Made by a program: the position numbers and the translations under genes
Notes under the pieces: generated by a model
Told to the model about the DNA's origin: nothing
What the model saw: only the letters and a program-made list of their open reading frames with translations
The model's database searches: none
In this document: one piece after another, positions 29,432 through 52,477 of the stretch
How positions within the stretch are numbered: the stretch's first letter is position 1
Layout of the letters: every line of letters begins with the position of its first letter
Sequence record: OR062945.1
DNA length: 64,000 nt
Reading direction: 5' to 3' (one strand)
DNA from: Escherichia phage 308Ecol101PP

Positions 29432-29749
29432 ATGAAAACCATCGATTGTAAAGCAGAATTTAAGATTTTTTATCACGGTTCAAGTAGTTCAGCTAACATC
29501 GAAAACATGCTTTGTCCTCCTGAGGAAACAGGAGTTCTGTCTGAAACCGGACGTAAGAAAAACTTGGATCGTGTATTCTTTACTGAAGATATCGGTTTAG
29601 CAAAGATTTATGCAGGACGAGCAGCACGCTCTTATGGAGGTGAACCACGTCTCTATCGAGTAATTTCTCCGGTAGACGTAGTTCAAATGAATGATACTAA
29701 AGGTGCTACAGTTTATCACGCTGAATGGGCATTTTGTGAGGAAATATGA
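29432..29749 (+). CDS. hypothetical protein
   Basis: 105-aa ORF. Confidence 0.45.
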   Translation: MKTIDCKAEFKIFYHGSSSSANIENMLCPPEETGVLSETGRKKNLDRVFFTEDIGLAKIYAGRAARSYGGEPRLYRVISPVDVVQMNDTKGATVYHAEWAFCEEI

Positions 29750-29937
29750 GCAAATTAACTAAAGTTACTTTTATAGGTTGGTTTAAAAGCGGTGAGATGT
29801 TCACTAAAGATATCATGTTATCAGGTGATCGCGAAGAAATCGAGTGGGTTACGGTACAACTTGCTGAAGTGAACAACGCATTAGTTAAAGCATTTGTTAA
29901 TGACGAGAAAGTTTTTGAAGCTGATTTCAGAGGATAA
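29746..29937 (+). CDS. dmd: Dmd-like antitoxin (inhibitor of host RnlA/LsoA RNase toxins)
   Basis: 63 aa with pattern FIGWFKSGEMFTK...LAEVNNALVKAF, which resembles T4 Dmd as I remember it; sits between 41 and 61. Confidence 0.65.
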   Translation: MSKLTKVTFIGWFKSGEMFTKDIMLSGDREEIEWVTVQLAEVNNALVKAFVNDEKVFEADFRG

Positions 29938-30894: not shown

Positions 30895-30924
30895 GTTTAC
30901 ATTATAGATGGACTATAGTATAGT
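30895..30924 (+). promoter_or_regulatory. candidate early promoter (GTTTAC ... TATAGT) with palindromic -10 region
   Basis: 18-nt spacing; GGACTATAGTATAGTAGTCC. Confidence 0.4.
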
Positions 30925-30953
30925 AGTCCTATCAAATCAACTAAGGAGTTAAA

Positions 30954-35421: not shown

Positions 35422-35610
35422 ATGATGCCTATTCCTGATACACACGAAAAAAGTTGGGAATACATTGGTGACGGCATGATGGAAGAAGTTATTCGTCCTA
35501 AGTCTGCTTCAAACTCTTCAAGTTATAATCATTCATACGTATCGTCTTGGCCCGGTGATTCTGGGTCAAGTTATTCTGATTGTGGTTCAAGCTCAGGGAG
35601 CTGCGAATGA
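35422..35610 (+). CDS. hypothetical Ser-rich protein
   Basis: Internal ATG of track ORF 35299..35610 after the previous stop. Confidence 0.35.
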   Translation: MMPIPDTHEKSWEYIGDGMMEEVIRPKSASNSSSYNHSYVSSWPGDSGSSYSDCGSSSGSCE

Positions 35611-35786
35611 ACAAGATAGTTAAATGGTTTAAAAGCTGGGACGATGGTGTCGGTCCAGAAGATTGGCTGGATGTTCTTGAAGAGAATATGGCTAAAGAAT
35701 TCCAGAAACATGAAGAAAAGCTCGTCGAAGATGAAGGCGAACGTATTGTAAAACTTTATATGGGTGAACCATCGAGGAAATTATAA
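35607..35786 (+). CDS. hypothetical protein
   Basis: ATGA overlap; track ORF 35580..35786. Confidence 0.4.
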   Translation: MNKIVKWFKSWDDGVGPEDWLDVLEENMAKEFQKHEEKLVEDEGERIVKLYMGEPSRKL

Positions 35787-36250
35787 TGGATGCTATGCTA
35801 TTTAAAATGTATTTGCTTGAAGCCAAGTCATTTAAACATATACCAGTGGAAGATAAGACTCCACTAGAAATAGCTATTCTAATTAACAAAAGTCTAAATA
35901 ATCCGCAATATATCGTAGAAGAATTCTGCAAATTGCAGATTCCTAAAGGTTACAAAATTCGTGTAGAGCGAGTTGGAGCTATTACTCGTTCTAAAAATTC
36001 TCCGTTTAGTCTTGAAGAAGGCATAAAGGACTTAGGTTATGAATCTACGGAAAATGCCGTTTATGTGAATCCTGAAAAGCGTTTAGACCTGTTTGAAAAG
36101 CGAGACCATAAGTATTTTGCCAAAAAATACTTTATTACATCATTAGCAGATTTAATCCATTTGCAACGAGCTATTTGGAAATTTTTTAAGACAAAAGGTG
36201 TAGCACTAGAAACATTCTCTGAACCGGCTAGTTTTTATCTAGGTGAATAA
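35786..36250 (+). CDS. hypothetical protein
   Basis: 154-aa ORF. Confidence 0.5.
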   Translation: MDAMLFKMYLLEAKSFKHIPVEDKTPLEIAILINKSLNNPQYIVEEFCKLQIPKGYKIRVERVGAITRSKNSPFSLEEGIKDLGYESTENAVYVNPEKRLDLFEKRDHKYFAKKYFITSLADLIHLQRAIWKFFKTKGVALETFSEPASFYLGE

Positions 36251-36431
36251 TATGGACCTTATGAGTATGTTTGACGAGCCTGAAGTTGAGGCTCCTAAAG
36301 TGCATCGTAGTGAACTTATTGATGAACTAGATAGTATTATACAACGACACGGCTTTAGTTTACCTGTTGAAGCCCTGAAAGACCTTGCATCTTATTATGA
36401 CGACCCTCCACCATGGAGTCCTTGGAAATGA
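36243..36431 (+). CDS. hypothetical acidic protein
   Basis: 62-aa ORF. Confidence 0.4.
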   Translation: MNNMDLMSMFDEPEVEAPKVHRSELIDELDSIIQRHGFSLPVEALKDLASYYDDPPPWSPWK

Positions 36432-36592
36432 AAGAGAAATTGAAAGAGAAATTCTTACTAGAAATCAAGGAAAAAGACTTTGAGACATGGTATCGAATGG
36501 TGAAAGGGCTGACATTGCTTTTTAAAGCATCGTTATTCATGTTAGAACAACCTGGTCCTGATGGGCCTTTAGTAGGAAAGCTTAAAAAGTAG
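36428..36592 (+). CDS. hypothetical protein (54 aa, not in ORF track)
   Basis: Hand-translated ATG 36428 (ATGA overlap) to TAG 36590-36592. Confidence 0.3.
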   Translation: MKEKLKEKFLLEIKEKDFETWYRMVKGLTLLFKASLFMLEQPGPDGPLVGKLKK

Positions 36593-36620
36593 TTTACATT
36601 CCCTCCTCTCGTGTTATGAT
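36592..36620 (+). promoter_or_regulatory. early promoter (GTTTAC, 17 nt, TATGAT) upstream of modA
   Basis: Hexamers read directly. Confidence 0.45.
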
Positions 36621-36647
36621 AGGCTTATCTTTAAATGGAGGTCTATC

Positions 36648-37229
36648 ATGACATGTCAATCTGAACTTCAAGAACGTGAATACCTAACAAATCTGATTGA
36701 TAGCAAATTCACCCGCCAAGAACAAAACATTCTCTGGGCTTGCACCGATTCTAAGGAAGACCCAGATTTCCACTATGAATTAGACCATCTTGTTCGTAAG
36801 CATATGACTTCTACAGTACCAGTAGAACTCTACCGTGGTGTAACTCCAGAAGAAGTAGAACGTCTTTCCCTTCTTTCTGTGGGATGCCATTGGTCTCCTG
36901 GACGAGTAACATCGTTCACAACTGATTTCAGTACAGCTCGTCAATTCTCCGGGAGATGGGAATATCAGACGTACACTATTCTTAGTCTCAGGAATGCTCC
37001 GTTCATTTTTGATTACTACCAAAACATGGTTAACATTGTACTCGCCGGAAAGAACCCTAAGCATGTTATGGAAGAAACTCGTATCGATGTCCTAGATATG
37101 ATTGAATCTGAGCAAGAGTACATGGTCTCAGGTATCTCTAGATTTGAGATTGTGGAAATTGAAGACTTAGAATATGACCCTTTATCTCGGTTATACAAAA
37201 TCATTCATTTGAAAATGTTGAATTTTTAG
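36648..37229 (+). CDS. modA: ADP-ribosyltransferase ModA-like
   Basis: 193 aa with ART R-S-ExE pattern (LYRGV ... SFTTDFSTA ... ESEQEYM); T4 modA and modB are adjacent as here. Confidence 0.7.
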   Translation: MTCQSELQEREYLTNLIDSKFTRQEQNILWACTDSKEDPDFHYELDHLVRKHMTSTVPVELYRGVTPEEVERLSLLSVGCHWSPGRVTSFTTDFSTARQFSGRWEYQTYTILSLRNAPFIFDYYQNMVNIVLAGKNPKHVMEETRIDVLDMIESEQEYMVSGISRFEIVEIEDLEYDPLSRLYKIIHLKMLNF

Positions 37230-37258
37230 TGTACAAACTCTTCCGATGATGATACTAT
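37229..37258 (+). promoter_or_regulatory. candidate early promoter (GTGTAC ... TACTAT)
   Basis: 18-nt spacing. Confidence 0.4.
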
Positions 37259-37286
37259 ACCTTTATCAACCATAGGAGAAACCTAA

Positions 37287-37895
37287 ATGTTTATGCCGTA
37301 TAACGAGTGTGAAATTGAAGAAATGGTTCGTCGTGCTCAAAACCCCGAATATCAAGATGTATTGCAGTACGAAATTGATAGTCAATTCAGCGATAATGAA
37401 CAAAGCGTCCTTTGGCAGTGTATGGAAAACAAGCCAGACTGTATTCAACAGGAGTTAAGTTCAATCGTTCGTAGAAATTGGACGTCTTCTGTTCCTGAGA
37501 CAATGTATCGTGGAATCTCTAAGAAAACTATGGCCACACTCGATGATAAAGGCATTGGTAGTATTATTAAATTTGACAGAGTAATGAGCTTCAGCCCAGT
37601 GTTCGGTGTAGCGCGTAACTTTGCTTCGTATAATTTTTACGGAACATTTAATATGTTCTGCATCAAAGATGCACCATTTGCTTTCAACTTCCGTGAACAT
37701 ATGCTTAATATGATTCTGGCTGCACCATCTTGTGAGTTCAATGGAGCTTTCCCTGAAGCGACAAGACGGTCTAATGCTAGACTTATATCTGACGAATGTG
37801 AATTTATGCTCCCTATAGGGACTACACTGCGTGTAGATTCTATTATTCAAGATGGACGTTATACAATCTGGAATCTGTCTATTGTCAGTTACTGA
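37287..37895 (+). CDS. modB: ADP-ribosyltransferase ModB-like
   Basis: 202 aa with ART pattern (MYRGIS ... SFSPVFGVA ... SDECEFM); paralogous to the upstream gene. Confidence 0.7.
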   Translation: MFMPYNECEIEEMVRRAQNPEYQDVLQYEIDSQFSDNEQSVLWQCMENKPDCIQQELSSIVRRNWTSSVPETMYRGISKKTMATLDDKGIGSIIKFDRVMSFSPVFGVARNFASYNFYGTFNMFCIKDAPFAFNFREHMLNMILAAPSCEFNGAFPEATRRSNARLISDECEFMLPIGTTLRVDSIIQDGRYTIWNLSIVSY

Positions 37896-37969
37896 CTGAA
37901 TTGGAATAACCGGATGGAACTCAGAACCATTATAACACATAAAAAATTAAAGCATTTTATGAAAAAAGA

Positions 37970-37998
37970 GTGTACACTACCTGAGGGCATGATATTAT
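37970..37998 (+). promoter_or_regulatory. candidate early promoter (GTGTAC, 17 nt, TATTAT)
   Basis: Hexamers read directly. Confidence 0.4.
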
Positions 37999-38048
37999 AA
38001 GCTTATCAGCTAAACGACCTTAACGTCCGTAAGACAGAGGAAAATATT

Positions 38049-38795
38049 ATGTTATCAAATAATAAAATTAACAAAATTAATCGTCGTCTTGACCACACCA
38101 GAGCTTCTGCGAAGAGACGCTCTAAGGATTTTAACTTAGACTTTAATTACCTTAAAAACATTCTTGATCAAAAGGTCTGTGCTTACTCAGGTGAATCTTT
38201 TAATAACTCTGTTGAAGGTGAGAAATTATCCTTAGAACGTTTTAATAATGATATAGGCTACATTAAAGGTAATGTTATCCCGGTTAAGAAAAAATATAAC
38301 ACGGCTCGTTCTGATTTAACATTAGAAGAACTTATTGAGAAACGCGATGCCATTGCAAGACGTATCGCTAATCCTTCGGCCCGTAAAGTAGAGAAACTTA
38401 ATCTCGACGAGAAGAAATGGGCCCAAATTAAAAAGGTTTATGGTACTATTTTAAAAATCCGAGCAAAACGTGAAAATCGTGTTAAGCATATGGCGAACAT
38501 GATGAAAAATCAACCTTTATCTAACGAATCTAAACTTAGAATTGTTGCTTTGAAAGCACGCATTAATGGCTCACATCAAGCAGAAGGCCATGAACTTACT
38601 AAACTCAACGTTCTTCTTAAAGGCTCTGACTGGAAAACTAAAACTAAATTAACTGACGCTGAATCGCTTTTCGATACATATGATAAAGTTATCCAAGGTC
38701 TGCAACGTTTTGAAAAGATTGGTTTCATTGGTAAATTAAAATTGAAACGTGGCTTACCACTTAGCGCATCATTATTCCAACTGATTAAAGGTTAA
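38049..38795 (+). CDS. srd: Srd-like protein (by position between modB and dda)
   Basis: 248 aa basic protein; assignment rests on synteny only. Confidence 0.4.
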   Translation: MLSNNKINKINRRLDHTRASAKRRSKDFNLDFNYLKNILDQKVCAYSGESFNNSVEGEKLSLERFNNDIGYIKGNVIPVKKKYNTARSDLTLEELIEKRDAIARRIANPSARKVEKLNLDEKKWAQIKKVYGTILKIRAKRENRVKHMANMMKNQPLSNESKLRIVALKARINGSHQAEGHELTKLNVLLKGSDWKTKTKLTDAESLFDTYDKVIQGLQRFEKIGFIGKLKLKRGLPLSASLFQLIKG

Positions 38796-51907: not shown

Positions 51908-51937
51908 GTTTACAACTAAGTAGGACTATGATATAGT
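51908..51937 (+). promoter_or_regulatory. candidate early promoter (GTTTAC ... TATAGT) with palindromic -10 region
   Basis: 18-nt spacing; TAGGACTATGATATAGTAGTCCTA. Confidence 0.45.
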
Positions 51938-51963
51938 AGTCCTATCTAAAAGAGGATAACATC

Positions 51964-52419: not shown

Positions 52420-52449
52420 GTTTACAACAAGGTAGGATTATGGTATAGT
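52420..52449 (+). promoter_or_regulatory. candidate early promoter (GTTTAC ... TATAGT)
   Basis: 18-nt spacing; GTAGGA/TCCTAC palindrome. Confidence 0.45.
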
Positions 52450-52477
52450 AGTCCTACTGAAACATGAGGAACACAAA

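Follow-up and report, generated by a model that had tools for sequence, protein, structure and literature searches.

In the 64,000-nucleotide stretch of Escherichia phage 308Ecol101PP that we analysed (sequence record OR062945.1, hereafter the window), positions 36648-37895 hold two consecutive genes whose products each carry the R-S-ExE signature of ADP-ribosyltransferases (ARTs). An initial annotation had proposed a tandem ModA/ModB-like ART pair at this place; this is supported by homology and synteny, by the catalytic residues and the fold, and by the promoter motifs. The two open reading frames (ORFs), separated by a gap of 57 nt, are:

ORF1, 36648-37229, plus strand: the modB counterpart, 193 aa, an R-S-ExE ADP-ribosyltransferase.
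ORF2, 37287-37895, plus strand: the gene in the modA position, 202 aa, an R-S-ExE ADP-ribosyltransferase; alternative start at 37293.

The source phage is very probably a Mosigvirus, an RB69-type T4-like coliphage, and ORF1 and ORF2 its modB and modA, encoding early single-domain ADP-ribosyltransferases of the Mod family. The pair is a correct re-discovery of annotated genes and is as such already known, from the annotation of RB69 and from promoters published in 2006.

Similarity to T4 ModA and/or ModB covers most of the length of both ORFs. By BLASTP, ORF1 is 38% identical to T4 ModB (E = 8e-28) and 26% identical to T4 ModA (E = 8e-10), and ORF2 is 31% identical to T4 ModB (E = 6e-33, 104 bits) and 30% identical to T4 ModA over 199 aa with few gaps (E = 2e-20, 72 bits). 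Compared with each other, ORF1 and ORF2 are 33% identical over 147 aa (E = 1e-27), which makes them paralogues, and divergent ones as had been proposed. Both match PHROG 832 (RNA polymerase ADP-ribosylase) at about 1e-37 (7e-38 for ORF1). A tblastn search found no third Mod paralogue in the window, and neither isoelectric point nor net charge separates the ORF1 and ORF2 lineages. With ORF2 as query, tblastn gave relatives in 1078 phage records, the majority from T4-like phages. When 1.84 billion representative proteins were searched with a profile, a small family emerged: 119 members pass E <= 1e-3, and 15 pass E <= 1e-30. The family consists mainly of proteins of 160-230 aa, together with some ART domains within very large proteins.

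The catalytic signature reads LYR63G, S89-F-T and E155-Q-E157 in ORF1, and MYR75G, S101-F-S and E170-C-E172 in ORF2. The ExE form of the motif, as opposed to QxE, is the arginine-specific one in this clade (C2/iota/VIP2 versus C3 toxins). The R-S-ExE residues and the glycine following the arginine (R63-G64 and R75-G76) are invariant in alignments of 17, 19 and 31 homologues, where they align with R73, S99 and E171/E173 of T4 ModB and with R72, S96 and E163/E165 of T4 ModA. Loss of catalytic residues, which the initial annotation had named as the observation that would overturn it, was found in neither ORF when aligned with T4 ModA and ModB. R73 and E173 of T4 ModB are reported to be essential for NAD binding and catalysis.

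Structure prediction points to the same family. AlphaFold2 models of ORF1 (pLDDT 90.1) and ORF2 (pLDDT 96.0) place both proteins in the ART fold, and their leading Foldseek matches in the PDB are all R-S-E ARTs (E 4e-6 to 1e-4, probability 1.00): Certhrax, CDTa, iota Ia, C3, VIP2, Tre1, HopU1, Vis and XopAI. The top matches of the ORF1 model are Certhrax, iota/CDTa, C3 and Tre1, and matches of the ORF2 model include HopU1, C3, CDTa and Vis. Against predicted phage ModA and ModB structures, the ORF2 model reaches TM scores of 0.85-0.86 (0.86 with a predicted Tequatrovirus ModA). A PDB sequence search returned no solved Mod structure, and a 2025 statement holds that a crystal structure of ModB does not exist. 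Since tandem paralogues often subfunctionalise, one copy could in principle be a catalytically dead pseudo-enzyme kept for binding only; yet the arginine, the serine and both glutamates are invariant in both lineages across 31 sequences, both ORFs give high-confidence models of the ART fold and both genes are full length compared with RB69, so that we regard this as extremely improbable.

Not every resource recognises the family. In local Pfam-A, ORF1 has no match and ORF2 has one to DUF6597 that stays below threshold, NCBIfam matches neither ORF nor T4 ModA and ModB themselves, and a PDB sequence search gives no Mod-family match for either ORF. A literature search found no enzymatic, transcript-mapping or proteomic data for this phage. 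Because T4 ModA and ModB are themselves unmatched in NCBIfam, the silence of Pfam-A and NCBIfam cannot test membership. It does mean, together with that of the PDB sequence search, that the assignment leans on phage-specific resources and on fold. The label PF26816 is precomputed on all homologues. Matches to nucleophosmin in the PDB sequence search (E = 0.02) were judged spurious. Judged by their sequences, both proteins belong to the Mod family of the RSE clade, a family already recognised.

The surroundings of the pair are those found in its relatives. Over 36400-38100 the DNA shares 98-99% identity with many Mosigvirus genomes (PTK, APCEc01 and JK45 among them), and 153 records match this region at 90% identity or more. 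The annotation of RB69, the type Mosigvirus, gives modB (193 aa) and then modA (200 aa), in the same order as in the window; ORF1 is 99.0% identical to RB69 ModB (NP_861709) and ORF2 94.5% identical to RB69 ModA (NP_861708), and both are full length relative to these counterparts. The genes on either side are:

Mrh-like gene, 35786-36250: upstream of the pair; Pfam T4_MRH, 7e-38.
srd, 38049-38795, plus strand: the gene after ORF2; PHROG 1400, 1e-99.

Two small conserved ORFs lie between the Mrh-like gene and ORF1, and ORF2 is followed by Srd, then by Dda.1 (PF25693) and then by the Dda helicase. The gene order mrh - modB - modA - srd - dda.1 - dda is common to the window, T4, RB69 and Dhakavirus. 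The interval from modA.2/mrh to srd-dda encloses both stand-alone proteins of about 200 aa, which is the T4-like placement of Mod genes.

Three further observations concern the annotation of this interval. ORF2 has two in-frame ATGs, at 37287 and 37293 (MFMPYN...), of which the RB69 annotation uses the second (200 aa); a GGAG precedes them by 8 and 14 nt, respectively, and this spacing favours the first. An antisense ORF opposite ORF2 (37461-37940, minus strand, 159 aa) has no PHROG family and was treated as a chance occurrence. A small ORF of modA.2 type (area 36243-36592, in related records) is labelled 'molybdenum ABC transporter, periplasmic molybdenum-binding protein ModA' in several public genomes, which is an annotation error born of a name collision.

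The gene order also bears on which gene is ModA and which ModB. Transcription order in T4 is modB, modA, srd, dda.1, dda, and by position ORF1 is the modB counterpart and ORF2 the modA counterpart. Of the ModA/ModB naming given initially the pairing stands and the order is corrected, the ModB-like gene being the first and the gene in the modA position the second, as annotated in RB69. T4 ModA has ORF2 as its only match in the window, its closest relatives outside Tequatrovirus are the ORF2 group, and mean distances place it nearest that group, on a long branch. The ModA label of ORF2 rests on position and on these best matches of T4 ModA itself, not on a reciprocal best hit.

The comparison in the other direction is less favourable to a simple one-to-one correspondence. 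The best T4 match of ORF1 is ModB, and so is that of ORF2; ORF2 reaches 104 bits against T4 ModB and 72 bits against T4 ModA, and the best match of T4 ModB in the window is ORF2. RB69 ModA behaves likewise, with 109 bits against T4 ModB and 72 bits against T4 ModA. A neighbour-joining tree (Kimura distances), with T4 ModA on a long branch, leaves ModA/ModB orthology unsettled. Because ORF2 is nearer T4 ModB and the tree is unsettled, the division of labour known from T4, with one enzyme for RNA polymerase and one for translation factors, may not map onto ORF1 and ORF2 in the same way.

The distribution of Mod genes among T4-like phages helps to place ORF2. Two copies are found in Tequatro-, Mosig-, Dhaka- and Gaprivervirus, where the second copy is always ORF2- or ModA-like and the counterpart of ORF2 adjoins srd, the modA position, in every genus. 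One copy is found in Gelderland-, Karam-, Winkler-, Kanagawa-, Marfa-, Jiaoda- and Krischvirus, and these single-copy proteins are about equally near ORF1, ORF2 and T4 ModB but lie a long way from T4 ModA. A single duplication in the ancestor of the genera with two copies, after which ModA diverged rapidly in the T4 lineage, would explain this most simply, and on balance ORF2 is probably the ModA orthologue. Public records do not name the gene in this way throughout: it is modA in RB69, IME281 and VR26, and modB in 348Ecol098PP and in the UniRef entry for VR5, so that the naming of the second gene is inconsistent across Mosigvirus, Dhakavirus and Gaprivervirus records. The inconsistency arises because both proteins resemble T4 ModB more than T4 ModA, and for the same reason the T4 specificities are not simply transferable.

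A different division of labour would also accommodate part of this evidence. Both genes would then encode active ARTs, with ORF2 functionally ModB-like or directed at other targets, and exclusive modification of the RNA polymerase alpha subunit would be a speciality of the fast-evolving Tequatrovirus ModA. The scores of ORF2 and RB69 ModA against T4 ModB, the choice of ORF2 by T4 ModB, the position of the single-copy proteins close to ORF1, ORF2 and T4 ModB and distant from T4 ModA, the long branch of T4 ModA and the use of both names for ORF2 in public genomes can all be read in its favour. It sits less well with the modA position adjoining srd being held by ORF2 in all two-copy genera, with the ORF2 group as the nearest non-Tequatrovirus relatives of T4 ModA and ORF2 as its sole match in the window, with a full-length alignment of ORF2 to T4 ModA that has few gaps, and with the TM score of 0.86 against the predicted Tequatrovirus ModA. 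We consider it possible and on the unlikely side, and retain ORF2 as the probable ModA orthologue. No sequence determinant of ModA/ModB target choice or of RNAylation is known (PMC10468400), and the targets of ORF1 and ORF2 are something we infer only.

A further ORF of the window may be a third ART-like gene. It lies at 29432-29749 (plus strand, 105 aa), just upstream of dmd (29746-29937), and contains FYHGS ... VFFTED ... LYRV motifs, which we take to recall ADP-ribosyltransferases of the H-Y type (Arr-like). In phage 348Ecol098PP its counterpart bears the label 'putative ADP-ribosyl transferase'. The ORF falls in PHROG 2110 (unknown function) with a match at 3e-60, and no Pfam or PDB sequence match was found for it.

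Three promoters of the T4 early type are predicted at the locus, one before each gene of the pair and one before srd, which bounds the pair on its downstream side:

P1, 36592-36620, plus strand: predicted T4-type early promoter of ORF1; -35 GTTTAC at 36592-36597, 17-nt spacer with TGT ahead of the -10, -10 TATGAT at 36615-36620, predicted +1 at A36627; 24.4 bits in a position weight matrix (PWM).
P2, 37229-37258, plus strand: predicted early promoter of ORF2; -35 GTGTAC at 37229-37234, 18-nt spacer with TGA ahead of the -10, -10 TACTAT at 37253-37258, predicted +1 at A37265; PWM 23.7 bits.
P3, 37970-37998, plus strand: predicted early promoter of srd; -35 GTGTAC, -10 TATTAT, predicted +1 at A38005; PWM 21.3 bits.

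The matrix has two blocks and was trained on 13 other sites of the window, with P1, P2 and P3 held out; five shuffled windows gave at most 9.8 bits, as compared with 21-24 bits for the three sites, from a matrix that is overfitted and insensitive and misses obvious modB promoters of T4 and Dhakavirus. The promoters of the window form a family, A-rich / GTTTAC / N17-18 with TGn / TAnnnT / nnCCT-ATCAA, all on the plus strand and 20-50 nt before a start codon. This matches the description of early promoters in T4 and also RB69 (PMC1524935, PMC2988021). P1-P3 fit the family as predicted sites, with G for T at the third -35 position in P2 and P3. P2 starts at the last base of the ORF1 stop codon, and the predicted +1 of P1 and P2 is 21-22 nt upstream of the start codon of ORF1 and ORF2, respectively.

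Comparison with relatives supports these sites. RB69 has P1 identical except for one base and P2 identical, within intergenic sequences that are virtually identical, and early promoters were predicted there before modB (Pe:13466), modA (Pe:12829) and srd (Pe:12088), the counterpart of P2 having a HMMER score of 24.1 (Nolan et al. 2006). Dhakavirus IME281 has the two-gene layout with a canonical GTTTAC promoter in its 54-nt gap (29.5 bits), and the T4 promoter before srd, the counterpart of P3, scores 30.3 bits. In T4 itself the modB stop and modA start overlap by 4 nt (ATGA), and the PWM scan found no promoter between the two genes; the pair is hence T4-like, and its separate promoters are not the arrangement of T4. 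An own early promoter for each gene, as had been claimed, is supported as a prediction and is not new. T4 ModA and ModB are early proteins by proteomics, and no MotA-type middle or late promoter motif was found directly upstream of ORF1 or ORF2.

A generic sigma-70 scan is the less favourable test. It reports P1 (10/12 with TG extension) and P3 (with TG extension), yet it is not enriched in the region (17 found versus 19.3 expected) and misses P2. If P2 were not a working promoter, expression of ORF2 would depend wholly on the P1 transcript, in which it is the second gene, as is the case for modA in T4. The substitution of GTGTAC for GTTTAC and the imperfect -10 TACTAT would agree with this, as would the result of the generic scan, and read-through from P1 would be enough for two genes that no terminator separates. 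However, the held-out score of P2 equals that of P1 and is far above the shuffles, P2 carries the TGn extension and the ATCAA start-region motif common to the other early promoters of the window, its sequence is identical in RB69, a canonical promoter occupies the same gap in Dhakavirus, and the window keeps a 57-nt gap where T4 has an overlap. We therefore judge a silent P2 quite unlikely. No terminator-like site was found in the ORF1-ORF2 gap, and none after ORF2 in the gap before srd; for RB69, too, none is predicted between modB, modA and srd. Because the gaps lack a terminator, ORF2 should be transcribed from both P1 and P2.

Two sites upstream of P1 touch on read-through into modB. At 36554-36567 (plus strand), GGTCC-TGAT-GGGCC forms a 5-bp stem in the 3' end of a small ORF (36413-36592), just upstream of P1; it is the counterpart of the weak TransTerm terminator 'modB<--RB69ORF020c' of RB69 and would lower read-through into modB. 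At 35505-35529 (plus strand), TGCTTCA-N12-TATAAT matches the consensus of MotA-box middle promoters, one of 9 such matches on the plus strand of the window, and could feed middle-mode read-through transcripts into modB.

The start of ORF1 contains a further element, which links its promoter to its start codon:

Predicted RNA hairpin, 36610-36655, plus strand: 46 nt; its 5' arm consists of the extended P1 -10 with the next bases, the 3' arm is the GGAGG Shine-Dalgarno sequence, the spacer and the ORF1 AUG.

The hairpin has a predicted energy of -22.5 kcal/mol (z = -6.1), and none of 200 dinucleotide shuffles folds as well. Its 5' arm (36610-36626) ends just before the predicted +1 of P1 at 36627, so that transcripts started at P1 would lack this arm, and the geometry is that of a sequestering hairpin: a stable helix that includes Shine-Dalgarno and AUG, with the 5' arm upstream of the P1 start site. 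The computed probability of the ORF1 AUG being unpaired is 0.00 in read-through RNA and about 0.4 in RNA initiated at P1. At ORF2 the ribosome-binding region is about equally accessible in both these RNA forms (mean 0.47 versus 0.53), and no hairpin was found at its start. Among the remaining early promoters examined in the window, z ranges from -2.4 to +1.3, and none has a structure comparable to the modB hairpin.

The hairpin is conserved. It precedes the first or only Mod gene in 19/19 lineage sequences examined (z -3.2 to -8.2) and is kept in at least 10 genera of T4-like phages, with the exception that in Krischvirus the stem covers the Shine-Dalgarno only. MAFFT/RNAalifold misaligned the hairpin arms, and pairs were counted instead in an ungapped register anchored on the AUG. 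Over 14 stacked positions in 17 unique arm pairs, 90% of the pairs are canonical, in a register chosen for each sequence, which favours pairing, and compensatory changes on both sides occur at 10 of the 14. When partners were shuffled between sequences (1000 trials), the canonical fraction had a mean of 0.75 and a maximum of 0.84, and sliding the register gave 0.35-0.58. Of the 17 unique arm pairs, 13 have AUCAUG in exact register with the -10 hexamer TATGAT on the opposite arm. The frequent T.G pairs indicate that the hairpin would work only as RNA of the sense strand.

We propose that the hairpin may limit ModB translation to P1 transcripts by locking read-through RNA, a reading for which we see the odds as even. 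The reported lethality of over-expressed ModB fits with translation limited in this way. The same structure could instead serve as a terminator, as a stabiliser of the RNA 3' end of the upstream transcript, or as a modulator of RegB cleavage at GGAG, rather than as a gate for translation. In Krischvirus Ec_Makalu_001 the equivalent stem-loop, which has a U run behind it, indeed carries a terminator annotation, and a terminator modB<--56 is in the list of Nolan et al. for RB49. The GGAG of T4 modB is cut by RegB in vivo, and the modB RNA resists RegB in vitro, presumably via a stable structure (Durand et al. 2006, PMC1702504). However, the stem lacks a following U tract in the window and most genera, the exact pairing of the -10 hexamer with AUCAUG in 13 of 17 arm pairs is what sequestering of a start codon requires, and the design matches the mechanism established for T4 e, soc, 49 and I-TevI (PMC3014915). 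These other roles, taken together, appear to us doubtful, and a translation gate remains our preferred account. In the literature found, neither conservation of the hairpin nor its link to a promoter is described for modB, the existence of a structure being only mentioned in passing (Durand et al. 2006). Both Shine-Dalgarno sequences contain GGAG; as candidates for a strong RegB site they were rejected, as neither fits the GGAGRAYARAA consensus.

Comparable arrangements were noticed elsewhere in the window. At P3 and srd (37985-38055, plus strand), the -10 region CATGATATTAT is complementary to the srd start region AATATTATG, and the resulting long-range stem (-14.7 kcal/mol, z = -2.4) closes a 44-nt leader, recalling the modB arrangement in weaker form. 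Three early promoters (30895-30935, 51908-51950 and 52420-52460, all on the plus strand) have a near-palindrome centred on the -10, (T)AGGACTAT-N3-5-ATAGTAGTCCTA, which might fold as a hairpin in read-through RNA or be bound by a protein.

The following mechanism would bring these elements together. Each Mod protein would be a single-domain, arginine-specific mono-ADP-ribosyltransferase of about 200 residues, in which the Arg and Ser-x-Ser/Thr motifs would bind NAD+ and the second glutamate of ExE would catalyse transfer of ADP-ribose onto an arginine of a host protein. Strong sigma-70 promoters of T4 early type would direct synthesis during the first minutes after infection, with P1 driving modB and, via read-through, modA, P2 adding modA transcripts and P3 starting srd. 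By analogy with T4, the products would reprogramme host transcription (Arg265 of RNA polymerase alpha) and translation (S1, EF-Tu, trigger factor), and may also perform RNAylation with NAD-capped RNA. RNA entering from upstream would come from delayed-early or middle promoters, the MotA-type site at 35505 being an example, and in such RNA the P1 -10 region would pair with the modB Shine-Dalgarno and AUG and lock the ribosome-binding site: its TATGAT is exactly antisense to the AUCAUG of the modB start, and the next bases would pair with the Shine-Dalgarno. We infer enzymatic activity, the timing of expression and, above all, the split of targets between ORF1 and ORF2.

The gene pair itself adds nothing new, being the annotated modB-modA of RB69-type phages with promoters predicted in 2006. 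Its practical value is to flag the inconsistent modA/modB naming of the second gene in Mosigvirus, Dhakavirus and Gaprivervirus records. The functions usually quoted for these enzymes (RNA polymerase alpha versus S1/EF-Tu/trigger factor, and RNAylation) were assigned by experiment in T4 only; the report of RNAylation, which the initial annotation had cited for ModB, is real for T4 ModB (PMC10468400). The RB69-type proteins, about 30-38% identical to the T4 enzymes, are natural comparison material for asking why ModB, but not ModA, RNAylates. The hairpin linking the modB promoter to the start codon is a small, testable addition to post-transcriptional control in T4. If it acts as we propose, ModB synthesis would be confined to the first minutes of infection, and this would be the first early-promoter version of the mechanism of e, soc, 49 and I-TevI.

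Among known systems, the closest is RB69 ModB/ModA, with which the window shares gene order, intergenic sequences and all three promoter sites. RB69 ModA differs from ORF2 by few substitutions, mostly in the N-terminal third, and by its length, 200 aa from the second ATG versus 202 aa. The substrates of T4 ModB (P39423) are S1, EF-Tu and trigger factor for ADP-ribosylation and S1 and L2 for RNAylation. ORF1 shares with it the first place in the pair, behind modA.2, as well as 38% identity and the R-S-ExE residues, and the region upstream of T4 modB has the same promoter-plus-hairpin design; T4 ModB is longer (207 aa versus 193 aa), ORF1 being without part of the insertion before ExE. T4 ModA (P39421) ADP-ribosylates Arg265 of both RNA polymerase alpha subunits. 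ORF2 is likewise the second of the pair, by srd, 30% identical over the full length, with an equal loop length before ExE and with R-S-ExE kept, although by score it is closer to T4 ModB. T4 modA overlaps modB by 4 nt with no promoter of its own found, whereas ORF2 follows a 57-nt gap with P2.

More distant are T4 Alt and the R-S-E toxins (VIP2, C2, C3 and iota), which have the catalytic fold and the R / S-x-S / ExE motifs in common with ORF1 and ORF2, at a sequence identity of only 10-18%. Alt is a protein of about 680 aa packaged in the phage head and the toxins carry delivery domains, whereas the Mods are stand-alone domains of about 200 aa made after infection.

For the hairpin, the known counterparts are those of T4 e, soc, 49 and I-TevI, in which longer transcripts from upstream sequester the Shine-Dalgarno and/or AUG, and a promoter in the 5' arm gives translated transcripts that lack this arm; modB is not among the hairpin examples of that review (PMC3014915). 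The geometry at P1 and ORF1 is the same. The difference lies in the embedded promoter: in the T4 genes it is a late one and translation is delayed, whereas P1 is an early promoter, and translation of modB would be confined to the earliest transcripts.

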